A stretch of DNA of 63,183 bases, counting the filler, from Vezdaea acicularis (lineage: Eukaryota): assembly GCA_026025075.1 (NCBI GenBank). It is 5 parts of 5 records of this genome, joined end to end, with 100 filler letters (N's around TTAATTAATTAA, not from the genome) between each part and the next. Parts side by side here need not be neighbours in the genome. Positions count along the whole stretch, not along the records: positions 1 to 14,304 come from JAPEUI010000230.1; 4 more parts are not named here. One strand, given 5' to 3'. How positions within the stretch are numbered: position 1 is the stretch's first letter; every line of letters begins with the position of its first letter. The position numbers and the translations under genes are program-made. This document shows, piece after piece, positions 1 through 63,183 of the stretch. Below the pieces are notes generated by a model. The model did not search any database. It worked only from the letters and a program-made list of their open reading frames with translations, and was not told the DNA's origin.

Positions 1-226
1 GGCGATAGTTGTGACAGTAGCGACGATCGTAAATCTTCAATATTGCCTGTTTTGGAAGCTCTGTGAAGGCATCCGAGGTTTCATTGACGACAATAAGTAA
101 AACAACAGCCACAGTCACCGGCCAGACTCTCTTGATTGTGACATTTGCATACCAACATCCAATTGATTCATGTTGAAGGCGAATTGTCTGGCCCACGCAA
201 TATGGGTCCTCAGGTGTAGAGTCCAT
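1..226 (-). CDS. Fungal protein-kinase-like family protein, N-terminal part (runs off the window edge)
   Basis: Not in the ORF track. Manual translation from ATG at 226 gives MDSTPEDPYCVGQTIRLQ...NVTIKRVWPVTVAVVLLIVV...LPKQAILKIYDRRYCHNYR with no stop. The PY.G..L / LP..A.LK.YDRR pattern resembles the N-lobe of a filamentous-fungal kinase-like family. Confidence 0.5.
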   Translation of the reverse strand, partial: MDSTPEDPYCVGQTIRLQHESIGCWYANVTIKRVWPVTVAVVLLIVVNETSDAFTELPKQAILKIYDRRYCHNYR

Positions 227-1539
227 CTCAATGAAGAAAATATCGCGAGATCGGGAACAAAGCAGACGTGGAAAGCATCCAGATGGCTTATATAGCAGCG
301 TGTTGATCACGGTCTAAAGCACCACATTCACTCTTAATAAGTATGTTGAGACTCAGTATTACAAGGTGAAGGTTGTTAAGGTAGGCAGAACCAGAGACGG
401 TAGTTGTGGAGGTGAAGTATGCAGTGAGCTCAATACTCGCTTCTTCTCATTTTCTTCTAGTGCTACTGTGTCATCCAACCACGTAAACAGGAGAGGGTCG
501 GCATAATGCAAGCTCGCATGATATTCGACTCTTACACACCTTGGGTAATTTGAAGGGATTCGCTTTGAACGCGTTGTCAAAAAATTCTAGTATATTGCAA
601 CCCCGTACGCGTAAGGATGCTGCTCCAATCACAGGAGCGTACAATAATCACGAGACTGGCGCCGTTGAATATTTCAACTACCTAACAACATATGCTGTAT
701 GGAAAGACATCATCCTTAAAGGCGTCTCTTTGAATCGCCATATCTTCCAGTTCTTTAAAGGCTGCAGATGGTGAGTTTTGTAGTCAGTCCTTCGTTCCTC
801 TATCTTGATTAAGAAACAACCGTTGTACACCACTTGATATTCATCCGCAAGGATGATACTCTTCAAATCTTCGCACATCATTTTCTTTAACATATGTTCT
901 CTACATTTAATACTACAATCAAATGGTTTACTTCATTGTAGATTCTATTCCAGGCCAAGCGTATTTTTTTCGAGCTGATTTGAAAATGCTTACTCCTCAT
1001 ACTTAAATCTCGCTCATGCAGGTGGAACGATACCTGCACAACACACAAGACAAGAAGCTCATTCGATCATACAGGAGGCTAAAATTTGAGCTAATCAGCT
1101 TTCCAGTATCGGAGGACCGCCCACGTAAAGCTAAAACACAAATCGCAGCGCAGTCATGCAATCCTCTCATTTCTCCTTCATGTCAGCCTTCGGACACAAG
1201 ATATACTCAATTTGAGTGGCCGCCATTCTCGACCTTTGGGACCACCTCTCTTCAGAATGTGGCTGTCATGTTGCTATAACAAGTTTGAAAATCTAGACGT
1301 ACGGCCCAAGGCTTCCCTAGCTGCATCGATGGCAAAACCTACAGCCCTAAAAATTGAGCGATTGGTCATGTTGCTATGGATTGGCGATATATGAGACCCA
1401 CAGCACATTGAACCATACGCTCCGATGAACGGACAAGGAGAGAGAAGAAGAAGCGCTCCTAGGATATCCCTACATTACAGCATCCGCATAGTCTACCCGA
1501 AAATCTCTGCCTCAATCAACAGTCTAATGGAAGGTCAAA

Positions 1540-2453
1540 TCAAATATTCTGGAAGCGTATATCACCCTTTCTGATTCCAGATATCATGGCTTTCACCTTC
1601 GCAATACCGATTTTCCCTTGGCGCTCTTCCAAATCAGATCTAGTGATATTAGGAGTCTCAATTACGAGATTCAAACCTCTTCTTTCCATCCATTGCGCCC
1701 AATTTTTTGTTTGGGGAAGCCGCTGAAGCTTGTCCTGATGCCCTACCGCTTTGTTGAACATCAAGAGCAAACTTGTGTTCAATTGGGAGCGACTCTCGTC
1801 TCGGGAGAGAGTGGCTAGGTCCTCTTTATTGAGCCTCGAAAGAAGTCCATCCTCAAATTCTTCTAGGCTTCTCTCGCCGTGATGACTGAGAAAGAGCTCC
1901 TCACCCTTACAGAAACGTTTAAAGTCGATAAAACCCACGCGATGCTTCTCCATCCATTGGGTGAACCTCACCGCCTGAGGTGACCCGATGGCGCTCGAAT
2001 GCCCGCCACCCTCACTTCTTTTTTTGTTGTCACACACAAAAAGCAGAATATCGGCGCCGAGGTTTGAGATCTCTTCTACCTGAACAGATCAGTTAGTACG
2101 ATTATACTAATGAGCCCCAGGGATATTACTTCTTTCCGCAGATGGCTAATTGCATGTCGTAGCTGCGCTTTGGATTTCATCTGAGGCCTTCGACCACGTC
2201 GGTATTGCAGCTTCTTATCTGCTGATAATTGACTCCAGAGTGTTGAGAGATAGCGGGTATTAAGCCCAAATTCTTTGCTCTCACTGGGTAGCTTTTGTTG
2301 CATATCCTTAACAAAATTGTTCCAGCTATTTGGTCCTCTAGCAGGCCGTGAGGATTTACGGAATGATGATTGCTTCGCAATAGCTTCAAGCTGCTCACAG
2401 GGAAGTTCACCCCCCCTTGTGATCCCTTCAATTCTTAAAGCGTCGAGCTCCAT
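1540..2453 (-). CDS. Divergent HMG-box protein (2 exons, ~287 aa), KDZ-transposon-associated type
   Basis: ORFs 2076-2453 and 1540-2037 join in frame across a 50-nt intron 2129-2080 (GTAATA..CTAAC..CAG). HMG-like segment: RPARGPNSWNNFVKDMQQKL...YLSTLWSQLSADKKLQYR. Confidence 0.65.
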
Positions 2454-3231
2454 TATACATTAAGAAAGAAGTGCTGATGATGCATGACAGATGCCTGGTG
2501 AAAACACGAAGACCTTTTCCAACGCGGCAAGAGGACCGGTTTCCTCTTACACTGGTTGCCAATATGTGATTGCTCACGGGAGAAGAGCCACTAGCGTCGT
2601 ATGCCAGGAGTAGCTCGCACGCATCGGGCTACTTACAAGCCTACGCGAGACCTCTGACCAGGGTCCCCCCCTGGTATTGCCTCTTGTGATTGGCGGTAGG
2701 AAGGCGGGAAGGCCGTGCTGCTTTGTTGAGTTACCCGAGGGACCAAGCTAGTCTATCTCCAAATGGTCAACAGCTGGTGGATTTCTCCACTTCATAGCTG
2801 TCGTCCACTCATCAATTCTCTTTGGCCCCAACCCTTGAACGACTAATTTCCTGCTGGTCTCTGGGCGAAGATCCTAGCTGGATAGGAAGTTAGGAATTAG
2901 AAGAGCAAGATCGGCTTGACTGCTGCCACTCCTTGCGGAATCGTCACAACAGAGCGAACCTCCTTTTCAAACACAGGAGCCAAGCGTTTGAGGATCCTCT
3001 GCCGCTGACGCTAGAAACCAAGCAAAAAGAGGTCCTTCGTCTCGACGGGCTTGTCTGGAACAACGCACAGAGCATCGCGTGCTTTATCATATGCAAGCCA
3101 AGCCGCAGACGGAAGCTACACGGTAGATCGACATCTAACGGAGGCAAATGGTCGTTACAAGCCTGCGATATTCACACAGGACAGTGCTTCATGGTGACTA
3201 CAAACCCTCCAACTCTACGAACTAAACCATA

Positions 3232-3474
3232 ATGCCTGATAACAACCCAAATTTACCTGAACCCGCCGACGTCGACCAAGATGTCTTGGTCGAGCTCCTG
3301 GACGCGAATGAAGAACGCGTGCCGGGCCTAATGGCCAGGATAAACGACCTCCTCCTAAGCACGAGGCTACAGGGGGCGAGTTACCAGAAGATAGACCGAA
3401 GCAGAAAACAAAAACGGAGACGTCGCCCAAACCGCGGCAAACCTCCAAGAAATGCCAGAAATCACGCGCCTTAA
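3232..3474 (+). CDS. Small hypothetical protein (80 aa), acidic helical N-terminus and basic NLS-like C-terminus
   Basis: ATG-initiated ORF MPDNNPNLPEPADVDQDVLVELLDANEE...RSRKQKRRRRPNRGK; protein-like composition; no family recognised. Confidence 0.35.
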   Translation: MPDNNPNLPEPADVDQDVLVELLDANEERVPGLMARINDLLLSTRLQGASYQKIDRSRKQKRRRRPNRGKPPRNARNHAP

Positions 3475-3914
3475 ACGCATCCTAGGGGCAATGGAGTGAC
3501 TCAGGATGACTAGGCCATCATCTCGCAGCCATCATCATAGCTCATCCACCCGACAGAAGGAAAACCAACACCAATCTAGGCATCGTCCCTGCCGCAATAG
3601 GAGCTTCTCCTCCTCCAATACTCGTCCGCTCGTCAACGCTTCCCAAGGCCTGAGTTTGAAAGCAGTAAAGATTCAGATCCATCAGATGACTTTCCTCCAT
3701 CCCAAAACGCAACCAAGGAAGGCGCAGACACATTCTCGCAGCCACTTGAAAGACACACTGCGTCTCGGATGGCTCCTGGTGCGCCGCCGAATGGCGTGCA
3801 AACGGGCTTGTCCCATTCAACTCGTGAGATGGGACGGCCGGCGGCCGCCGCCATGGACGCATAGGCCGGAATCAATATACTAGAGATCGAGATATTCGGA
3901 TTGGTCGTGGCGAG

Positions 3915-4460
3915 AGGGGTGTGTCCCCGTCTCGGCGCCAGTCCGCCGCGGTGTTTCCGGAGGTCGCGCGGTTTACCTTCGCGTTTACGTCTTGGTCCTG
4001 AAAAATCCAATCTTCATAGGAAGAAGATAAGGGGGGCAAGACTGGCAATAAAGCTGCATACTTCGACAAGCTAATAGCTCTGCTCGAAGAGTTCAAGATC
4101 ATCTTCATCGTCACAGTAGACAATGTAAGCTCTGAGCAGATGCATGAGATTCGTGCAAGAGGGCTGCGCCCCCGTTTCGGCGCCTGTCCGCCGCAGGATT
4201 TCCGGCGCCCGTCCGCCGCAGGGTTTCCGGCGCCCGTCCGCCGCGGGGTTTCCGAGGGTCGCGCGGTATTCTTTCGCGTTCACGTCTTAGTCCTGAAAAA
4301 TCCGATCTTCACAGCAAGAAGATATAGGGGGCAAGACCGGCAACAAAGCCGCTTACTTCGACAAGCTCAAAGCTCTGCTCGAAGAGTTTAAGAGCATTTT
4401 CATTGTCACGGTAGACAATGTAAGCTCCCAGCAAATGCACGAGATACGTGCAAGTCTCCG
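3915..4460 (+). repeat. Imperfect tandem duplication (GC-rich block + P0 5' leader + P0 exon 1), two copies
   Basis: GGTCGCGCGGT..TTCGCGTTYACGTCTTRGTCCTGAAAAATCCRATCTTCAYAG.AAGAAGATA followed by P0 exon-1 codons occurs at ~3962-4160 and ~4257-4455. Confidence 0.85.
4029..4160 (+). pseudogene. RPP0: 60S ribosomal protein P0 (uL10) exon-1 fragment, copy 1
   Basis: Translates (K)GGKTGNKAAYFDKLIALLEEFKIIFIVTVDNVSSEQMHEIRA. The start ATG is replaced by AAG, and the fragment breaks into the GC-rich block at ~4161. Confidence 0.85.
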
Positions 4461-5041
4461 CGGAGATGGGGTCGTTCTAATGGGCAAGAATACGATGGTG
4501 AGTAGGCTTTACGCTCCGTTCAAGATTCTTTTCTTGGCTGATCGATTTCGTTATTTAGGTCGCGCCGGGGGGTTCCTAGGGCCCGCCCGCCGCGGGGTTT
4601 CCGGGGCCAGTCCGCTGCGGGGTTCCCGGGGGTCGCGCGGTTCCCGGGGCCCGCCCGCCGCGGCTCGTTCTTTAGGTCCGCCGTGCGACCAAGGGCTTCA
4701 TTGGTGACAATCCCGAGTATGAGCGCCTCTTACCTCATGTCAAAGGTACTGTCAGTTTTTCACTGAACTCAGTGAATTCTTGCTTAACGTCAGGCAACGT
4801 CGGATTCGTCTTCACGAACGCTGATCTCAAGGATACCCGAGAGAAGATTCTTTCCAATAAAGTTGCCGCGCCAGCGAGAGCTGGAGCCGTAAATCCTCTT
4901 GACGTTAGTATCAATGAGACTATACTCAGATAACTATCTAATGATAAGCAGGTCTATGTCCCAGCTGGCAACACTGGTATAGAGCCTGGAAAAACCTCAT
5001 TCTTCCAAGCCCTTGGGGTTCCAACAAAAATTGCTTGTTGA
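4324..5041 (+). pseudogene. RPP0: 60S ribosomal protein P0 (uL10), 3'-truncated copy with 3 introns, start codon ATA
   Basis: Exons 4324-4497, 4676-4745, 4794-4903 and 4952-5041 splice to (I)[91 protein letters not shown]...[40 protein letters not shown] (147 codons). Confidence 0.9.
4562..4664. repeat. GC-rich minisatellite-like insertion flanked by a 14-bp near-direct repeat
   Basis: Units resembling CCGCCGCGGGGTTTCCGGGGCCCG lie between TCGTTATTTAGGTC (4548-4561) and TCGTTCTTTAGGTC (4665-4678). Related blocks at ~3925-3972 and ~4161-4266. Confidence 0.8.
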
Positions 5042-5372
5042 ATCCTCTGTTGGTGCCTCCAAAACTAGGCTACCCAGACTAACTTCCCTGTTGTACCCTC
5101 GACTGTGCAACTCTACGTTTGTGGGTACATCGCGGAAACGCTCATCCACGGCGGAGACGCTCTCGCCAGCCAGCCCGACGGCGCCGCCCTTTCCGATATC
5201 CATCCTCTGCCGGCGTGCAGCACTACCCTTATAGCCTTCCTCCTCGACGGCGGAACGCCAAGTCCGATCTACCTGTGCTTGCGGGAGCCATAGAATAGCC
5301 CGAAGAGGATGAAGCCAAATACGGCAAGCCCGACCGGCAAGCCGCGATGACGTCGCTGGAGGTATGCTTCAA

Positions 5373-5440
5373 GAAGATGGCGTAGGCAAACGCGATACCT
5401 TGAAATTCGTGGTGGCCGGCGTCTTGGCCATTGGCTTTGT
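5373..5440 (-). pseudogene. Isolated J-domain (DnaJ, DNAJC9-like) exon fragment
   Basis: After a pyrimidine tract and CAG acceptor the frame reads (D)KANGQDAGHHEFQGIAFAYAIF, like the post-HPD helix III of fungal J proteins (FQEIAFAYAILSD). Nothing matching continues beyond it. Confidence 0.5.
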
Positions 5441-7312
5441 CTGCGGAAAGCAAAGAGGGGGAAGAAGCAGAAAGGTGTGGGCGGGTACAACGAGACAGGG
5501 GAAGTCAGCATGGGAGAATAGAACTTGATATTGTCTGGATCTAATAAACTCTAATTATCTCCCACAAGTGCCTTATCCATTGCTCCCGCGCCTTTGTGTC
5601 TCGTCTGGATGCCTGTGAACGGGACTTGTCAGCGTAAGCCATGCCAAACCCCCGTGATACGCATACCCTGATTCCTATCCCTCAAGCACCTCTTCTTCTT
5701 CCTCCAGAAGAGTTTGATTGTAGGATGCGAGGACTGCTCTTGCGATCTCTCGGAGCGTTGGTTGACTGTCAAACTGGAAACTTGCAACCGACCTCGTTTG
5801 TGACCGTGCTCCTCACCTTGATGAGGACCAGAGGGGACTCCGTCGAGCAGAGAATTGCCTCGAAGTACCAGCCTGGCATCGAGGACTTTGGAGACGTATT
5901 GAGCTTCTTAGGCGAAGCAACCTCCGTGAGGGCCAGTGGTCTGATATTATCGAGTCTGTCATTGAGTTCGAGGTAACGAATCCACTGGACGACCCCAGCT
6001 TTTTTAGAGGCCGCCCGAAAAATCGTGTCTTCGCCCTTTCTATAATTGTATTTCCGTTTTGTCAGCTGCGTCTTGTCAAGGATAGGGGTCTATTTACCTT
6101 CCCCATATTGATTGTTAATCTTGCTATGGCTAAACCTGCGAACGTTGAAGAATTTTGGTCGTGAGTCGCACAAATTCTTGATGAATGTTGAGTAGCTTGC
6201 GAGGTGAATGTTGAGTAGATCGCGAGGTGAATGTGCGGCACGTCCGCGTGACTGCTTTAGTGACAGTGGACACGCCACTCAAGCGCTTGAAGCGAGACAA
6301 GCCTCTCGTCTGTATGGTCCAGCCCCTGAGGTAACATGTGAGCCCCCTCCCAAGACTGGAACAATCTTCAAGATATGATACAATAAATAGTCTGATGACA
6401 ACAGGGAGGACAAGTACTTGTCCAAGGATGCTGCAGCTGAACGCTGTAACATAGCCAAAGACTCAGGATATACTCACGCCGACAAGGTATCGGGCTCTTA
6501 TTTTCTGTCTATTCCTTGCGCGGAGACTGTGCCCAAAGGGTCATAAATACGAGTATCTACACAAGTTGCCAACTCTACACGACCTTTTCAACTCAAATAT
6601 CGATTGCTTTGGGCGGGATAAGCACAGCGACTATCGGGATGACATGGGCGGCGTCAGAAGCTTTAGAGACAGAATAGAACTCTCTAGGTTGGTCATATAC
6701 ATGTCCGGGATGGCATGGAAGAGGTCGTAGCCCGTCATTTCGCAGAGTGGGGTCAAATCGACAACAGTGAGCCGTTCTTAGGAGATCCTTAAGCTGCGTC
6801 AGAATTGTAAGCTAACTTGATCTCTCAGTCCGCGTTCTACATTCTCGGGGAGAAGCCTTTATAACATATACCAATGAAGCCGACTCACAGTTTACTAAAG
6901 AAGCTATGGCGCGTCAGTCGCTCGATGAGTCGGAGATCCTGAACGTGCGCGGGGCTACCATGGGCTCCAATCCGATGGCATCAAGCTTGCAGCATGGAGC
7001 AGGCTGCCGAAGCAGTTCGGAGGCTTTACCCGATGAATTTGTGGCTGAAATAGCAGGCCGGGATCCGGGTGACTTTAGCATGCGACGCAGCTCACTTCAC
7101 TCATCTCCTCGGCGGTTGGACTTGCTTTGCGGTCGCTCGTGCTTGATTCGGATGTTTCTTAGGGAACTCTAATCCTCTTCATCAACGAAATATGCTAACG
7201 TGTTAAAATAGGGGTGAGCGGGCTGCCGGAAGCTAGATAGCACCCACGCGCGACGCCGACTTGACCTGCCGACTTGACCTGCCTGACGATTCTCATTAGT
7301 TATGACATTGCC

Positions 7313-10250
7313 ATGACACGTCGAAAAGGGAATCGCTTTTACGTCACTGGTCTTCAGAAGCCATTGAAATGGACTTTGCAAACACGAAACGCAATCTGGG
7401 AAGATCTTCGGCCTGTCATTCGAAGGCAACGTCAAGATCGAGGCTTGACAAAAATAGCAGACAGCATCTGGGATGATGCGGGGGACAATTTGGACAGAGG
7501 ATGGGTAGACGAGGACCTTTTCGAAGACTTCAATGCCTCAGCCATCAATTCAGGGGCTGAGGCAATCAGAGCTTCGGACACATCTGACGGTCCGCCGATA
7601 CCCCTATTCCCCGTGAGGCTCTCACGGCGCAACGAAGAGAACCGAAAGCGACGGGACGACAACTGGGCACGGGTGCGAGAACCTTTTCTAGAGGCTATCA
7701 TGAACGGCCAGAAAGCCCGTTGTCGGACTCCGAACTGCGAGACGACTTCGCACATCATTTGGCTCGTAAGCCTTACTGGTGAGAATAGTTCCAAATGGTA
7801 ATATATCTTAAAACTAACATATCAAAGAAACGCACCAAACGAGCCTACAATGGTGCAGCTGTGATGCTGCAGCTACTACGTTGATAGTAGCTGGCTACTT
7901 CCCATCGAGTATCCGTCCAAATCGAAGAGAACGAAACGCTAAGCACTAACGATTCACAGCACCCTTGAAGCCTAAACTGGCCTTCTCCCTGGATTTGATT
8001 CGGTTTTTCCATCAAGTTATCATGATCGGTAACGTTTCGAAGTATGCCTGGGCTCACGGCCTTCATCGATTTCTACAGAAGACCATGCGACAGCGCCTTC
8101 CAGAATTCAAGAAGCCATGGGAATATGCGTATTTCAATTGGCTTGAATTGGATCGCATATGCCAGTCATCTTGCATGAAGGATTTAGAGAGATTGAGCGG
8201 AAGTACGTTCAAGCAGAACGCGCTTGCTAGCCTCTGTCCGGCCTGCTTTCATCGACCAGACGAAGATGACTCGCCTTACATATTTTCTATAGATGGCAAT
8301 TTTCAACACTCACGGCGAAAATGGATCAGCGCCGGCCGCGAATCATCATCCTATACTCGAGAACTGTTCATTCCAGACGACAGTGACCAGGTGAATCCCG
8401 ACGGCCAAAACCTTGAGAAGACGGGAGGGTGCAACCACACGTTTGTTGCAGCTTCCATGGAGAGCAAACCAAAGTCAATGACAAGTCTCGATGAGACCGG
8501 TATTATGGGCGCAGTCTGCCGACATGATATCCCATTACGATATCTAAATCTTTTCACTGGCGAAAGGAGTTCATCATCGATATCCCTTATCAAGTCTGTC
8601 GTGGACCAATGTCCGGCCAACACATCGATTCATGTACAGTACGACATTGCTTGCAAATTTCAGCGATCTCTCCAGCTCGCTGATCCTATACTAGACCAAC
8701 GCGTTCAGCTCAGCCTAAACGCATTCCACAATTACGCCCACGAGCTTCGTTGTCAGCTTCGGTGGGGTCCATTGAGAACCGAAGGGCTTGGTAGATCGGA
8801 CGGGGAAGGGTGTGAACGTAATTGGGCATCCATGGCCCATCTTGTCTCAGTTGGTCGGCAGTCCAGTGCCAAGTCGAGGATGATGTTACTGGACCAGCAT
8901 GGTCTTCATCAAGCTGGCCGTCTTCGAACTAACCTTGTATCTACTCTGCAAAGGCGCATTGAGAAATGCGAGCAAGATTTACGAATCAGTTCACAGGCGC
9001 TTGATGATCTAGTGTTACGAAGTGAAGAGCAAGGCGAAACGGTGACTCGCACTTTTGTCGAAAGGGAGTTAAGAAGAGAGGCAGAAGCTCAGCGAAGCTG
9101 GTTTATGGCTAACAGCGAGGCTTACGACAGATATATTAGCTGTTATCAATTTAAAGAAGCCTTTCAGTACGTTAAACGGGAAAAAGAGCTTGAGGCAGAG
9201 CTATACGAAACGTTGAATCGATCAACACTTGTACGACCTGAATCTGCAGAGCGTTGGAAACGTGTTATTGCAATCTTAGAAAATCAATGCGCGCAAGCTG
9301 TGTGTGCGACCGATGAAGTTTTACGGAGATTTAGCCAGTCTAGAGCAGACTGGATTACTGATGGGCATCTTTGGACAACATATAGCTCTCTCGAAACCTG
9401 GCTCCGCCTTGAAAAGTTAAAGCTAGACATTCATCGCCAGATATCATCTCGTGTTATTGAGTTAAAATCGATCCGAAGTCGAATTAGAGGCCATAACGGC
9501 GCACAGAAGCTTGTACAGTCTCTGAAGAAACGTTTACCAAAGATAGGGGGCAAAGTGGATGAGTATAATAAGCTTTGTGCCACTTTACCTGAGCATTGTC
9601 GTCCACCAAACATAGACAAGGACACCTTTGACGTGGAGACTCTGGAGCGAAATGGCAATCTACCCCTATGGGAATTTGAAAGCTGTCGTGCAAGTCTCTT
9701 GGGAAATAACAGAACTTGGAAGTACTCAACATGCATGATACAGGGCGTGGAAGCTCTCTATCGGCAATCCCGAGCCAAGGAAGAGCTCTACTATCTCAGA
9801 AAAGAGCTAGGGCGGACACTGGATTGGTCAGAATCCCAGCTCTCATCACTTTTATCAGCCTTCCCATATCTCAACAGTTCTGATTTTCGATCAAGGGGCC
9901 TGGAAATGGTTATGGACCTTCTTGAAACGTGTAAAGAAGCAATCGCCAGTAATGGGGATGTGTTTCATGGGAGATCTTTGGCGACGTTGCGAAGTACTGT
10001 CACTTTACACATACCTTATACGGAATAGCTTATGGTTATAGAACTTGCTACCCATGCGTTGCAATTACTGCCTCGACCCGCTCAAACTGACGAATTGGAT
10101 CTAAATTACGAGGAGGAAGATCCATATGAAGGTCACCAGCCAGAATTTATCGACGACAACGATAGCCAATTTGAGAATGTGCTAACTGCCGCGGAAGAGC
10201 TGCAATCGTTAAGAGTCACCATGGAAAATGAGTTCGCGTTCAGCGTATGA
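7313..10250 (+). CDS. CxC1-KDZ (Kyakuja-Dileera-Zisupton) DNA transposase, apparently intact
   Basis: Exons 7313-7778, 7828-7908, 7960-9993 and 10042-10250 (possible extra exon to 10360) splice in frame. CxC1-like WCSC...LIVAGYFPSTPLKPKLAFSLDLI; CPAC; FSIDGNF, AVCRHDIPL, GE, QYDIAC, AFHNYAHELRCQ and GRSDGEGCERNWA KDZ motifs. Confidence 0.9.
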
Positions 10251-11539
10251 AAGAACAGTTCAAGACCTTCATTACGCTCCAAATATGTGAACCACAGGAG
10301 ATTGGTGATTCGCAGGATAAATTTGCTGTCGAAATTCAGCTATCAAAGCTTACTATTTAACAAGGGGCACAGGCCGACAGAACACAAGAACAGTGCCGCT
10401 GAGTTGCCACTGGAAATTGCTGTGGGAATCCATCTAGAACCACATCAAAGGCATGTACTACCCTCAACTAGCAGCAGCGCAATAGGAGCAGAGCATTACT
10501 GTCGTTGTAAGACCGTAAATGGCAACGCATGGATCGCTTGAAGCATATCAAACCGGTAGACTCAAGTATCCTCTCATAATTGAAATTGAAATGATATTCA
10601 ATTCACGTTTTCTTATATCATCAATCATGAGGTTTATGTGGCGCTAAATGCCACATTGAACAAACTCATACCCTCAATGATGGCTTCATTGACCCTTCGT
10701 AACCTAGAAGATTAGACTTTCTGAAGGCTTGCCTCAATGGAATGAGTGCACATCGATAACAAACCTAAACTTCCTTGCTACTGAGTCTCTTCAACAGCTA
10801 TTTAGGTAAGGATGTCTCAGAACGGCCAAGATACGATCCAGCGACTTGCTGTAACTCTACGTTCACTCATAACCTGGACTAACCCTTGCATCGGAGCCTT
10901 CGTGAGATGTAATACACTTTTCGTGACGTGATCATGTAGGGCATAGGATATCTAGGATGATTGATTTATTCAACTTACGTTAAATTTGCATAGCTTGAGT
11001 CTACAGTGTCTCTAAGATCAATGATGGCTGGATCTTCAACCTTTTCTTCCGATCTTGATATTCTTCAACCCGAACTTGTCTAGAGCTATCCTGCTAGCCA
11101 CTCCACGTTCACTTCTTTCTATTATCGTTTACCCGCCCTTGATCAATTTCCGAGGCCCCCCTTCCTCTTGATGTCAACGTCTAAACTCAAACCAAAGGAT
11201 GACTTTTTGCTAAATCTCCCAGTATACCCTTTACCTTGATCAAGTTCATTGCGACAAGCGGGCACTGACAATTTGTCAAACCTTTGCGTTAAGCTCAAAT
11301 CAGAATTGCACTCGAGGTTGACCTTCAACCCCAATCGTTCATGCGGAACTCAAGCTCAGCTTCGATACTTGGTTACGTTAGGTCAGGACCATATGACCAG
11401 CTTGGTAATTATCCACCGAACCTATACATGAATCAATTCACTGATATTTTAGTACTAACTTACTGGATCCGAGCTTGTGCAAAGACGCCATCCCAGTGAG
11501 AGTTTAGCCCAGCTCACTGGAGCCTCAATTCACGCGAAG

Positions 11540-13133
11540 ATGCATATTCACGATACAACTACTAACATCTCCATCAAAGTTGAGGCATTAGCAAACAACA
11601 AGCTGCTCGCTGAGTATTTTCCAAGCCAAGAGGGCCATACAGTCACTTGCACTATACCTGTTAACAGCAAAGACCAGATTACTTTGAAGTGCTCGTATAT
11701 AGCAGAAAAAAAGGCGACACTTGATTGGGACTACTACATTGATGGGATCTGTAGATTTTCCATGTTCTCTCAAAGCGATGCTAAGGCTTGGAAAGCTTTG
11801 AATAAAGAGCTTCAATACTGTTACGACGCCAAGCCTGGAGACAAGTATGTCACAGATTGTAAAATGATCGTTGAACCCCTTTCCAGTAGGACCCCCCCCC
11901 CCAAAACCTTCAAGCATCATGCTAATAAGCCTTAAGTTGGTCTAGAAGCGGATAAAGATGGAGACCTAGTCCCTAGCATCGGTGAAATTCGTGTCCTGGT
12001 TTACAGGCGTGGACCATGGGATGTTCCGCACACTCGTCCCTCTATAACTGATACAGAATGCTGGAAGCCAACTCTTCCATCGGAGAAAAACACACATCTC
12101 GCACCCACTCACTTCATCAGGTAGATCACCCTGTTCCAAGATTATAGCACGGCTCTAACTAAAGAAATAGTCTTGTGGCTAAGCCGGAGAACGTTAAGAA
12201 CTACGCGGTAAATACCATACGAAGACATCTGGAATACAGAGATCCTGATGGGCCATTGATTCAACTCATCTTTTATTATAGAGACTCAAGTACAACATCC
12301 TTCAACACGTGCACTCACTCATTAACATACTCTTAGGGAAAGTAACAGACTTCGCAAATCTTATTCCAGGGTCAAACCCAACTGAGATTGACTTTGCTTT
12401 TGCGAGCACCCCTAAACCGTACTTAATAAAGCAAGAACGCGCTTCAACGGATGGGCTTGATGAGACAAATGTTGATTTGTCAATAATCAGTGATGTTAGT
12501 CAACCTCTGACAATTATAGACGATGAGACTGCTGGCCACGCAAATCTCCAGAGTTCTGTCGAGTCACAAGCTCGCAAGCGCAACATGGGAGAGATATCTC
12601 CGTTAGCAGCCGCCTTAGATATCAATGCAAAAAGATTTCGAGCAGATGGTGCGATCATCGGTACAGCACGTCAGAGATATGAAGATAGGATGCGTGCGGA
12701 AGCAAGGAGGAAAGAAGAGCGAGACAACGATCTTCAGATGTTAATGGATGACGTTAATGAGAGTGAAAAGAAGGAGCAAGACCTTCTAGAAAAGCTCGAG
12801 GACTACTATAAACAGCTGGATACAAAATTTCAGGTTATTTTAGCCCCCTTTTCTGCCAAAGATCTTCACAAGGATTCAAGCTAACAAAGTTTAGGCCGAG
12901 GTTACGGCAAAAGAGGCTGAGTATATACTTGCGGCTACGCGTCTGAAAGAGCAATCTAAATACGTAAAAGAGAACTTGGCAAACCTTGAGAAGGAAATGT
13001 CAAGCCTAGAAAAACGGCTCACGGTAAGCTCCCCGCCACCAAAAGTCTCAAAGCATTACAACCCTTTTCATTTGATTACTGATCGTCTATAACTAAGTAG
13101 GATCCAAGTCTCCCTAATTCAAATACCCCTTAA
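11540..13133 (+). CDS. Hypothetical fungal protein (6 exons): beta-rich N-terminal domain of the EY..YIDG..GEI.V..R..FYYR type plus C-terminal coiled coil
   Basis: Five canonical short introns (starting 11886, 12121, 12290, ~12834, ~13024) join the ORFs in frame: LLAEYFP...YYIDG...SIGEIRVLVYRR...PLIQLIFYYRDS...KENLANLEKEMSSLEKRL. Resembles a fungal DUF family (DUF7918-like, unverified). Confidence 0.65.
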
Positions 13134-13539
13134 ATGCTCTGAACATTCATTCAGTGCATCTTTGAATCATTGCGTGGAGACTTATGGAATATCATCAGAG
13201 TTGATGCTTTACAGTGGGGGTCAATTTGATCAGAATTTAAGTTCTTTGGTCTACTTTAACTGGGTTCTTCTATAGACATAATGGATCAAACAAAAGCGAT
13301 AAGATCGAGAAGATGCTCTTGCAATATTGCTTCATATAGTGATCAAATAGTGTACGCTCAATAGTCCGCAAATATGATCGAATCCGCCTACCAACTCGTA
13401 TAACCTGGTATGCAGGGTGGAAATGAATTGAGAATCTTGATACCCCTAAGTCGTGCACTGCCTACTCAAACCAGAGCTAGGCCCTTGTCTTGACTTGTAA
13501 CAACTGCAAGCATCATCTGCAGAACATAGGTGATACAGG

Positions 13540-14304
13540 AAAGCCGGACTTAATGCACTCTAAGCGTTCGGGGCCTCGTCTTGCAAGCAGGGCAACGGCT
13601 CGAAAAAATTGGTTCAAAGCGCTCAGAGCACTTGTGGCCTCGCATTATGGGCAAGACAAGATTGCTGGCACAATGCGCTTACAGCCCTTAAAGCGCTCAC
13701 AGGGCCCGCCGAGCTGGCAGGATGGGATCGCCGGCATGATACGCTTGGAGCGTTTAAAGCGTTCGAAAGCCTCTCTCGTTGCATAAAATGAGCGCCCCGG
13801 TGGATTCACTTGAAGCGCTTAGAGCGCTCGAAAGCCTTGCCGGGCGATCACGATGGAATTGCGGGCATAGTGCGCTCGGAGCACTCGAAGTGTTTGAAGC
13901 GCTTGATTACCTTGCCGGGCGGGCTGGACGCGATTATTCATTTGATATGCTCGGAGCGCTTGAAGCGCTCACAAGCCTAGCCGAGGGCGCAAAACGTGAT
14001 CGCTGGCATAATACGCTGAAGCGCTTAAAGCGCTCGAAAACCTTGCCGGGCGAGCACGAAGGAATTGCGGGCTTAATGCGCTCTCAGTACTCAAAGCGCT
14101 TGAAGCACTTGATGGCTCGGTCGGGCGGGCAGCTCGCAATCGTCGGCATGATACGCACAGTGCGCTTGAAGCGCTTCTAAGCCTTGCCGGACGAGTACGA
14201 CGGAATCGCAGGCGTAGTGCGCTCAAAGCACTCGGAGCGCTCGGAGCGCTTGAAGTGCATGATGGCTTCGCTGGGCGGGCAGCTCACGCTCGGCGGCATG
14301 ATAC
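13540..14304. repeat. Degenerate tandem array of ~66/75/84-bp units with nested 9-bp GCGCTYRRA sub-repeats, running to the contig end
   Basis: Unit starts (ATCGCCGGCATGATACGC-like) at about 13661, 13727, 13791, 13858, 13933, 13999, 14064, 14139, 14205 and 14289. Confidence 0.85.
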
Positions 14305-14404
14305 NNNNNNNNNNNNNNNNNNNNNNNNNNNNNNNNNNNNNNNNNNNNTTAATTAATTAANNNNNNNNNNNNNNNNNNNNNNNNNNNNNNNNNNNNNNNN
14401 NNNN
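14305..14404. other. Artificial contig spacer
   Basis: 44 N + TTAATTAATTAA (stops in all frames) + 44 N. Confidence 0.98.
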
Positions 14405-25674: not shown

Positions 25675-26050
25675 CAGTCAGCTGACCCTTTCAATTTTGC
25701 GTTGCGCTTTGAAATCAAAAAAGACGTGTCGGGGAGACGCGCCGTGCGCGGCAAGTTCGTGATGCCGAGGTAAAGATATCCCACATGAGCCCCCAGAAGC
25801 TTCCCGAAAACTTCCCAATTGAGTAGTAGAGGAAGCCGGTGACAGTCAGCTGACCCTTCCAGTTTTCCGTTGCGTTTTGAAATCAGAAAAGACGTGTTGG
25901 GGAGACGTGCCTTGCGCGCAAACTTCGTGATGCTGAGGTAAAGATATCCTGAATTAGCCCCCCAAGAAGCTTCTCGAAAACTTCCAAATTCAGTACTGAA
26001 GGGAGCAGGTGGAAGTCAGCTGACCCTTCCATTTCTGCGTTGCGTTTTGG
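25675..26050. repeat. Intergenic tandem repeat, ~168-170 bp unit, ~2.2 copies
   Basis: AGTCAGCTGACCCTT..TT..CGTTGCG.TTTG starts at ~25675, 25843 and 26013; units 1 and 2 align over their whole length. Confidence 0.9.
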
Positions 26051-26471
26051 AAGTGCAAAGAGGGGCCTAGGGCTAGGCCGAGCTGTGAGAAAGGGGAGAT
26101 GGTACTCCTTCAGGGCCGCGGGGAGAAAGGGGAGATGCCATTCCTGTAGGCTAGAGGGCGGCCAGAAAACTGATGGAGATAGGAAGATTGGTGGGCGAAG
26201 AGCAGAACCATAAAGTCATATACACCTTGCAAATGAATTCATTCCTCACGCAAAGAAGGGGAAATTTGAAAGAATGTGTTATTGTCCTTGGACAGCAAGC
26301 GATGATTCCTGAATCTACCTAGAAGTTCCCTTTACTATTGGAATCAGTCACCTTACCTAAATTGCCTTTCCATGATGCATGCTGAAGCCCCGCCAACTCC
26401 GCAAAAATGCACAATCGTAACCCCACCAGTCAGTCAGTCGCGCAACGTTAAGATGGAGGGCGAAAGCAGCC

Positions 26472-28643: not shown

Positions 28644-28743
28644 NNNNNNNNNNNNNNNNNNNNNNNNNNNNNNNNNNNNNNNNNNNNTTAATTAATTAAN
28701 NNNNNNNNNNNNNNNNNNNNNNNNNNNNNNNNNNNNNNNNNNN
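28644..28743. other. Artificial contig spacer
   Basis: 44 N + TTAATTAATTAA + 44 N. Confidence 0.98.
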
Positions 28744-42470: not shown

Positions 42471-42570
42471 NNNNNNNNNNNNNNNNNNNNNNNNNNNNNN
42501 NNNNNNNNNNNNNNTTAATTAATTAANNNNNNNNNNNNNNNNNNNNNNNNNNNNNNNNNNNNNNNNNNNN
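42471..42570. other. Artificial contig spacer
   Basis: 44 N + TTAATTAATTAA + 44 N. Confidence 0.98.
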
Positions 42571-56211: not shown

Positions 56212-56311
56212 NNNNNNNNNNNNNNNNNNNNNNNNNNNNNNNNNNNNNNNNNNNNTTAATTAATTAANNNNNNNNNNNNNNNNNNNNNNNNNNNNNNNNN
56301 NNNNNNNNNNN
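56212..56311. other. Artificial contig spacer
   Basis: 44 N + TTAATTAATTAA + 44 N. Confidence 0.98.
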
Positions 56312-63059: not shown

Positions 63060-63183
63060 TTAGGGTTAGGGTTAGGGTTAGGGTTAGGGTTAGGGTTAGG
63101 GTTAGGGTTAGGGTTAGGGTTAGGGTTAGGGTTAGGGTTAGGGTTAGGGTTAGGGTTAGGGTTAGGGTTAGGGTTAGGGTTAG
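63060..63183 (+). repeat. Telomeric repeat (TTAGGG)n
   Basis: 20 perfect TTAGGG units plus TTAG, running to the end of the sequence in right-end orientation. Confidence 0.97.

Follow-up and report, generated by a model that had tools for sequence, protein, structure and literature searches.

We describe here a locus on the first contig of a 63,183-base stretch of DNA (the window) from Vezdaea acicularis, a member of the Pezizomycotina (leotiomyceta incertae sedis) whose genome is a metagenome-assembled genome (MAG). The locus is a real KDZ-family element, or the remnant of one, in an unusual host. It consists of a CxC1-KDZ transposase gene, a small HMG-like gene that is a probable accessory gene of the element and, between the two, a genuine mosaic of dead host-gene copies. 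The window joins five separate contigs (about 14, 14, 14, 14 and 7 kb) through artificial linkers made of N runs around TTAATTAATTAA (14305-14404, 28644-28743, 42471-42570 and 56212-56311); features are not readable across these joins, and the KDZ locus lies on contig 1 only (1-14304). For the domain scan of this contig, its 125 stop-to-stop open reading frames (ORFs) of at least 50 aa were compared with Pfam at E values up to 0.05, a procedure that misses exons shorter than 50 aa.

The transposase gene and its HMG-like partner

The CxC1-KDZ transposase gene (M1824_002798) occupies 7313-10250 on the plus strand and was delimited with the Pfam families KDZ and CxC1 and with its relatives. Its exons (7313-7778, 7828-7908, 7960-9993 and 10042-10247, followed by the stop codon at 10248-10250) are separated by three short introns, and the spliced model encodes 929 aa without internal stop. 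The ORF at 7950-10028 (+) matches Pfam KDZ (PF18758) with E 4e-42 and 144.8 bits, for a cut-off of 26.6, and the deposited protein of this gene (P0046) does so with E 7e-42. The latter also contains the N-terminal cysteine cluster of the KDZ superfamily, scoring 48.3 bits for CxC1 (E 1.3e-12, cut-off 26.9) and 33.3 bits for CxC2 (cut-off 27); because this cluster is spread over exons 1-3, single exons gave no CxC match. All 32 invariant columns of a 13-sequence alignment are kept, including D177, D228 and E282/E285 (numbered from 7962).

Concerning the gene model, introns 1 and 2 (49 and 51 nt) show GT..AG ends and CTAAC branch sites, while the relatives P0047, P0049 and P0005 agree with the start (MTRRKGN...) and with the junction of exons 2 and 3 (FPSTPLKP). 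The spliced product is collinear over residues 78-805 with P0005, a full-length relative of 865 aa (37% identical), and the intron positions are common to a 48%-identical KDZ gene on a metagenome contig (L001, see below), as seen from the matching three-block tblastx pattern. The third intron is a predicted 48-nt, in-frame one (9994-10041) that contains a TAG at 10026, so the frame is open only if it is spliced. It is annotated in P0046 and, at the same place, in the paralog P0049; read unspliced, the paralog P0003 also reaches a stop there, and P0001 and P0002 read through in frame. The reading of TAG 10026 as a premature stop, suggested by the read-through of P0001, was rejected given the spliced models of P0046 and P0049 and the stop in P0003, and the 48-nt stretch is taken to be a conserved short intron, as predicted from these comparisons. 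The preliminary description had announced a spliced, stop-free CxC1-KDZ gene; its domains are confirmed, and its freedom from stops depends on this one predicted intron.

The deposited protein P0046 (980 aa) differs from our model at its N-terminus, where 56 residues derive from a dead Cwc2 fragment (6906-7068) joined to 7329. In the relatives the protein begins at the position of 7313, which makes an annotation artefact the probable source of this fusion, and loci of this type seed proteomes with chimeric 'hypothetical proteins'. Taken together, sequence comparison supports a real and apparently intact CxC1-KDZ gene in a Pezizomycotina genome, in agreement with the earlier proposal of an ascomycete KDZ element. 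A second KDZ gene of the same MAG (M1824_001878, on a 26.6-kb contig) is 62% identical to it.

The HMG-like accessory gene (M1824_002796, 287 aa) lies at 1540-2453 on the minus strand and thus points away from the transposase gene. Exon 1 (2453-2130), an intron of 50 nt (2129-2080, GT..AG, CTAAC) and exon 2 (2079-1543), with the stop codon at 1542-1540, make up a spliced two-exon model that reproduces P0041 exactly, a product identical to the NCBI protein of this MAG. The gene and its orientation were therefore correctly described beforehand; its label as an HMG-box gene fares less well, as the Pfam matches fall below the cut-offs and the other support is weak. HMG_box_2 is found with E 0.003-0.01 (18.6 and 16.9 bits, cut-off 22.4) and, in the paralog P0043, HMG_box with 18.4 bits (cut-off 25.4); the partner homolog on L001 shows no HMG match in Pfam, and a profile search of PDB sequences with the partner found no HMG protein. 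The nearest ESM Atlas cluster is basidiomycete and labelled 'HMG box domain-containing protein' (score 0.94). The predicted structure is poor (predicted local distance difference test, pLDDT, 54.5); in a fold search with this model, 17 of the 50 listed rows are HMG boxes placed on residues 36-98, with Z of 3.6-4.9, and the best two listed rows belong to GTF2I domains, placed on the 80 residues at the C-terminus with Z of 6.3 and 5.8, all of these being Z values in the common range. Judging from the model, the N-terminal part is probably an HMG box and the C-terminal part may resemble a GTF2I-type DNA-binding domain. A spectrin CH-domain match among PDB sequences (E 0.14) was discounted.

The partner family is tiny, with 4 matches in a word-index search of 5.8 billion sequences and 13 matches at E up to 1e-3 among 1.84 billion representatives, 12 of them credible once an EF-hand false positive is removed. 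One further member, M1824_005519, is encoded by the same MAG on a 97.5-kb contig. The KDZ and partner paralogs of the MAG are deeply diverged (62-64% identity). Being small and recurrent, the partner gene should be considered a candidate transposition cofactor for the KDZ superfamily, whose mechanism, to our knowledge, is unstudied.

A mosaic of dead host-gene copies between the two genes

The partner gene (-) and the transposase gene (+) are divergent and separated by 4.85 kb. This interval is a nested mosaic to which at least three dispersed host genes, encoding ribosomal protein P0, a Psg1-like protein and the pre-mRNA splicing factor Cwc2, contributed dead copies at the DNA level. None of the fragments is functional: start codons and a zinc ligand have been lost, there is a frameshift, and both ends are truncated. 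That intron-bearing pieces of unrelated host genes fill the interval had been noticed before, and the identification of parental genes elsewhere now consolidates it. Part of the evidence comes from four moss-metagenome runs of one study, in which short contigs at least 99% identical to the window occur together with contigs of a relative about 91% identical; the abundance ratio of the latter to the former varies between runs, hence the relative is a different genome.

The P0 fragment (3647-5042, +), recognised by Pfam Ribosomal_L10 and by the PDB P0 chain 7olc, contains upstream DNA, two copies of exon 1 (4029-4130 and 4324-4498) and the exons 2 to 4; the introns are retained, and the coding part reaches approximately residue 148 of 312. 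Ribosomal_L10 matches at 4020-4388 (E 6.7e-5) and 4297-4704 (E 1.7e-12), and chain 7olc along its residues 1-66 (E 1.5e-26) and 59-121 (E 8.6e-20). The double occurrence of P0 reported earlier corresponds to a 295-bp tandem duplication of exon 1 (3933-4159 versus 4228-4454, 87% identical), followed by further P0 exons with their introns as far as 5042. The ATG is lost in both exon 1 copies, being AAG at 4029-4031 and ATA at 4324-4326. Past 5042, contigs of the other runs continue with letters that, in our own reading of the translation, give the next P0 residues, which indicates that the true P0 gene lies elsewhere and that the copy on contig 1 is cut off. A GC-rich 25-bp minisatellite (3941-4629, +) forms three clusters, before, between and after the exon 1 copies, with Tandem Repeats Finder (TRF) arrays at 4174-4254 and 4563-4631; a 20-nt motif of it, with up to 3 mismatches, has 6 matches in the window, all within 3941-4629, where 0 are expected. 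One related contig is devoid of the intron-1 cluster (joint 4553>4671). The minisatellite may have driven the 295-bp duplication.

A third host piece, absent from the preliminary description, is the tail of a Psg1-like gene (Pfam PF14610) at 5030-5343 on the minus strand. It corresponds to residues 252-356 of the 382-aa product (P0055) of M1824_005439, located on a 98.9-kb contig of the same MAG, with 84-89% identity and one frameshift near 5236-5239. Two smaller minus-strand pieces, 3044-3194 and 3507-3646, are related to the same parent, the first being probably, and the second likewise taken as, sequence downstream (3') of that gene. In a related contig 3194 is followed directly by 3507, and 3646 by 5043, which implies that the P0 piece and a 312-bp segment were inserted within a Psg1-derived stretch. 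This 312-bp segment (3195-3506, +), skipped in the related contig, is accompanied by a 6-bp direct repeat, TGACTA, at 3195-3200 and 3507-3512, and its basic-rich ORF of 82 aa (3226-3474) belongs to no Pfam family. Joining 2800-3194, 3507-3646 and 5043-5760 gave no long open frame.

The Cwc2 fragment (6391-7068, +) is composed of a Torus/CCCH part (6391-6727) and an RRM part (6816-7068), and both gene ends are missing. Pfam Torus is matched with E 1.4e-5 and 1e-11 and RRM_1 with E 0.031, and the cwf2/CWC2-type PDB chain 9l5r along residues 118-174 (E 1e-24) and 207-298 (E 5e-22). The J-domain exon announced previously was a misreading: no ORF of contig 1 matches DnaJ, and the stretch 6391-7169 is a Cwc2 fragment. 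One zinc-ligand Cys has become Tyr. Parental Cwc2 contigs depart from contig 1 at 6666 and 7068, and they run on past 7068 unlike the window, so that the parental gene must lie elsewhere. The distance from the end of the fragment to the start codon of the transposase is 245 bp.

It should be noted that about 1.6 kb of the interval has no assigned origin in the Pfam and PDB scans. The stretch next to the partner start (2460-3043) has no Pfam match and is covered by a contig of the relative (2271-4007). The stretch at 5344-6390, which includes a 23-bp tandem repeat (6182-6234), has no Pfam or PDB match; its minus-strand ORFs 5772-6089 and 6133-6462 found nothing in the PDB search, and related contigs differ there by insertions and deletions (joints 5748>6058 and 6119>6203).

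The composition of the mosaic also bears on the provenance of the contig. The genome being a MAG, contig 1 could be mis-assembled or come from another organism of the metagenome, for example a basidiomycete, KDZ genes being common there; all 19 KDZ matches that carry an organism name are non-ascomycete (18 Basidiomycota and 1 Mucor), and the nearest Atlas clusters of the partner are basidiomycete. We nevertheless regard such an origin as very improbable. The P0 and Cwc2 fragments are closest to the PDB chains 7olc and 9l5r, which we take to be Chaetomium thermophilum structures, the yeast chains scoring lower, and the Psg1-like parent, the second KDZ gene and the second partner gene reside on 98.9-kb, 26.6-kb and 97.5-kb contigs of the same MAG. 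Moreover, independent contigs of the four other runs cover every depth bin and bridge the junctions between flank and HMG-like gene and between HMG-like gene and mosaic, and in tetranucleotide usage the correlation between contig 1 and the other contigs (0.59-0.82) falls within the range found among those contigs (0.53-0.88).

The remaining contigs of the window (2-5) carry housekeeping genes (SNARE, ABC-F protein, SUMO E1 subunit, AsnRS, DNA ligase I, arginase, BUB1, HAT1, annexin, PMI and others), and no transposon genes were found on them. Contig 1 terminates inside a tandem repeat of about 206 bp (13500-14304, copies 71-75% alike), which probably caused the assembly break. Contig 2 shows two overlapping tandem duplications of about 170 bp at 25675-26052 (84-87% alike), and TTAGGG telomere repeats at 63060-63183 terminate the last contig, with the phosphomannose isomerase gene within about 1.5 kb.

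Linkage, mobility and the position of the mosaic

Whether the two genes belong together can be addressed through their relatives. Metagenome contig L001 carries the 48%-identical KDZ gene and, about 3 kb away, a partner homolog (tblastn E 1.5e-23), and these two genes are the only sequence common to L001 and contig 1. In addition, a KDZ protein (P0002, 72-76% identical) and a partner protein (P0048, 67%) are each assigned to a contig of 19,185 bases, presumably one and the same, and the pairwise divergences of the KDZ and partner families are of similar size. The recurrence of the partner beside KDZ relatives makes a two-gene element plausible, and we consider it likely that the two genes are parts of one element type. 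On L001 the order is KDZ, a 401-aa orphan ORF on the other strand (3754-4959, -) and then the partner; a second orphan ORF of 494 aa lies at 9501-10985 (-), and neither orphan has a Pfam family. The L001 KDZ gene is frameshifted, and near-identical copies on other contigs are intact.

The explanation that we favour, with moderate confidence, is that the locus is a DNA transposon of the KDZ superfamily, old and low in copy number, or what is left of one that no longer moves, with two element genes and a mosaic of host fragments. According to this scheme the transposase would cut and paste the unit, the accessory protein would bend or bind DNA and so help the transposition complex to assemble, and pieces of host genes would have been patched in at the DNA level during the repair of breaks inside the element, possibly by filler synthesis or template switching, mechanisms that have been proposed for Pack-type elements. 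The arrangement as a whole would be older than the split from the 91% relative, with no mobility visible today. That the mosaic lies inside the mobile unit, and is hence cargo, seems to us an evenly balanced proposition.

Several observations weigh against this explanation. First, on L001 the partner is downstream of the KDZ gene and on the same strand, so the divergent layout described beforehand, in which the two genes enclose the cargo, is not conserved. Second, the linkage is not general: M1824_001878 and M1824_005519 are on different contigs (26.6 and 97.5 kb), as are P0001 (KDZ, 91-93% identical) and P0042 (partner, 91%), which we take by their identity to be proteins of the 91% relative and which are on contigs of 18,478 and 15,267 bases; and contig L002, where a 35%-identical KDZ gene has 6 kb of sequence upstream and 2.4 kb downstream, showed no partner in that span. 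Third, element ends are elusive. No terminal inverted repeats were found on contig 1, the best of 51 inverted pairs being 30 nt at 73% (chance level), and neither a target-site duplication nor an element end is definable from one copy; the lack of inverted repeats is not disqualifying, because Kyakuja elements are devoid of them as well (see below). No near-identical second copy, and none with the same cargo, was seen among the contigs of the other runs, where 32 aligned pieces out of a larger set (231 more) are listed and none of the 32 spans 4007-7889. The additional depth at the KDZ gene is due to a diverged paralog whose alignment stays within the coding sequence (loose ends at 7824 and 9601). 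Finally, the predicted 48-nt intron on whose splicing the open frame depends is without a canonical branch site.

The 91% relative adds to these points. It covers all 30 depth bins, both flanks included; its contigs bridge left flank and partner (1-2181) and partner and mosaic (2271-4007), and cover the right flank (11047-13545). Among the joints listed there is none that skips the element, hence neither an empty site nor an insertion polymorphism was seen, and the arrangement predates the split from this relative. As to the earlier idea of a Pack-MULE- or Helitron-like capture, the presence of DNA-level fragments of dispersed genes holds, and the ends, the target-site duplication, the same-cargo copy and the empty site that would complete it were not found.

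The same observations can be accommodated by real transposon genes with a mosaic that is not cargo, the element ends lying between the genes or the genes stemming from different, rearranged copies, and the fragments being filler or segmental junk. The different gene order on L001, the second KDZ and second partner genes of the MAG that are unlinked at contig level, and the missing ends all fit this explanation; the nested structure and the 6-bp microhomology at one junction resemble repair products for which transposition is unneeded, and the 206-bp repeat at the contig terminus suggests a repeat-rich neighbourhood. In ordinary fungal intergenic DNA, however, mosaics of fragments from several genes are uncommon. 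Contigs 2-5 are gene-dense and housekeeping, and the mosaic of contig 1 fills the exact space between the genes, from the left stretch that reaches the partner start to the Cwc2 end 245 bp from the transposase. On balance we judge this explanation somewhat unlikely.

Domestication offers another way to understand a locus that has stayed in place, namely a KDZ and partner pair that has become an immobile host gene pair under selection at a fixed locus, with fragments that are decaying neighbours. A lineage about 9-10% diverged has this locus too, with a KDZ core about half as diverged as the flanks: 40 of 878 and 32 of 727 letters are changed in the core (about 4.5%), against 8.7-10.6% for the flanks and 2271-4007. 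This indicates constraint on the transposase, which counts in favour of the transposon explanation as well; the partner protein, for its part, is 91% identical to P0042. The frames of both genes have stayed open, in contrast to the broken fragments, and copy number is low in the MAG (2 KDZ and 2 partner genes, paralogs 62-64% identical). Yet L001-type KDZ genes occur on at least 4 contigs of different data sets, one frameshifted and the others intact, which fits a decaying mobile family; the loci of the pair have no other neighbours in common, and all KDZ hallmarks of an active transposase appear to be retained. Domestication is in our opinion quite unlikely.

Going beyond the old transposon or remnant that we favour, the locus could represent an undescribed, autonomous KDZ lineage of the Pezizomycotina, present as single, deeply diverged copies, with an HMG- and GTF2I-like partner and a Pack-MULE-like shuffling of fragments that places exons upstream of the transposase. 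We hold this broader proposal to be unlikely. If the mosaic is truly inside a mobile unit, it would amount to fungal Pack-type exon shuffling by a KDZ element, and if captured exons sit directly upstream of the transposase, chimeric transcripts could arise.

Comparison with known transposon systems

Among the KDZ elements described, those of Cryptococcus (KDZ1-3 and KDZx1) move; they measure 6.4-10.9 kb, generate 8-bp duplications and carry extra ORFs of unknown function, KDZx1 being without inverted repeats (Huang et al., bioRxiv 10.1101/2024.08.15.608186). Kyakuja elements are given CA..TG ends and 7-bp duplications, also without inverted repeats, in Kojima 2025 (PMC12730594), which also reports, for Basidiomycota, KDZ families that have captured TET/JBP genes. 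The Vezdaea locus resembles them in the combination of an N-terminal CxC zinc cluster with a KDZ domain, in a unit of 6-11 kb with extra ORFs, and in that inverted repeats may be absent, as in Kyakuja and KDZx1.

With regard to host range, a survey of fungal cut-and-paste transposons (Muszewska et al. 2017, PMC5751038) lists KDZ only for Basidiomycota, Rhizophagus, Mucoromycotina and Allomyces, and the text of a TET-focused survey, its supplementary Table S1 aside, mentions none in Pezizomycotina (PMC12730594). The host range of KDZ is therefore extended by a CxC1-KDZ gene that, together with paralogs, occurs in a leotiomyceta MAG. The Vezdaea locus differs from the KDZ elements described so far in its Pezizomycotina host, in its recurrent HMG-like partner, in an interior of dead host-gene fragments rather than whole genes, and in that its ends and a TET/JBP gene were not found; the absence of the latter had been remarked earlier, and in agreement no ORF of contig 1 matched Tet_JBP. 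In the excerpts of the literature searched, KDZ elements were nowhere connected with an HMG partner or with fragments of host genes, and the earlier statement that fungal KDZ elements often co-encode an HMG protein found no confirmation there.

The mosaic itself calls to mind Pack-type elements, which are non-autonomous and defined by their terminal repeats. Like Pack-MULEs and other Pack-type elements, and like plant Helitrons and CACTA elements, the locus shows several intron-bearing fragments of unlinked genes, in mixed orientation and nested, in a transposon-like unit, and like Pack-type elements it has a chimeric transcript predicted by the annotators (P0046). It departs from them in having an apparently intact transposase gene, in that no amplification of cargo copies was seen, and in that the position between the two genes is all that places the fragments in a unit. 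Neither Helitron Rep/helicase nor Mutator transposase had a Pfam match among the ORFs of contig 1.

Finally, Starships are giant cargo elements of the Pezizomycotina, so the likeness here is that of an ascomycete mobile element said to carry cargo. Their tyrosine-recombinase captain (DUF3435) had no match among the ORFs of the 14.3-kb contig, although one may lie beyond the contig ends. In contrast to a Starship, the Vezdaea unit is far smaller, and what it would carry is fragments of genes, not intact ones.

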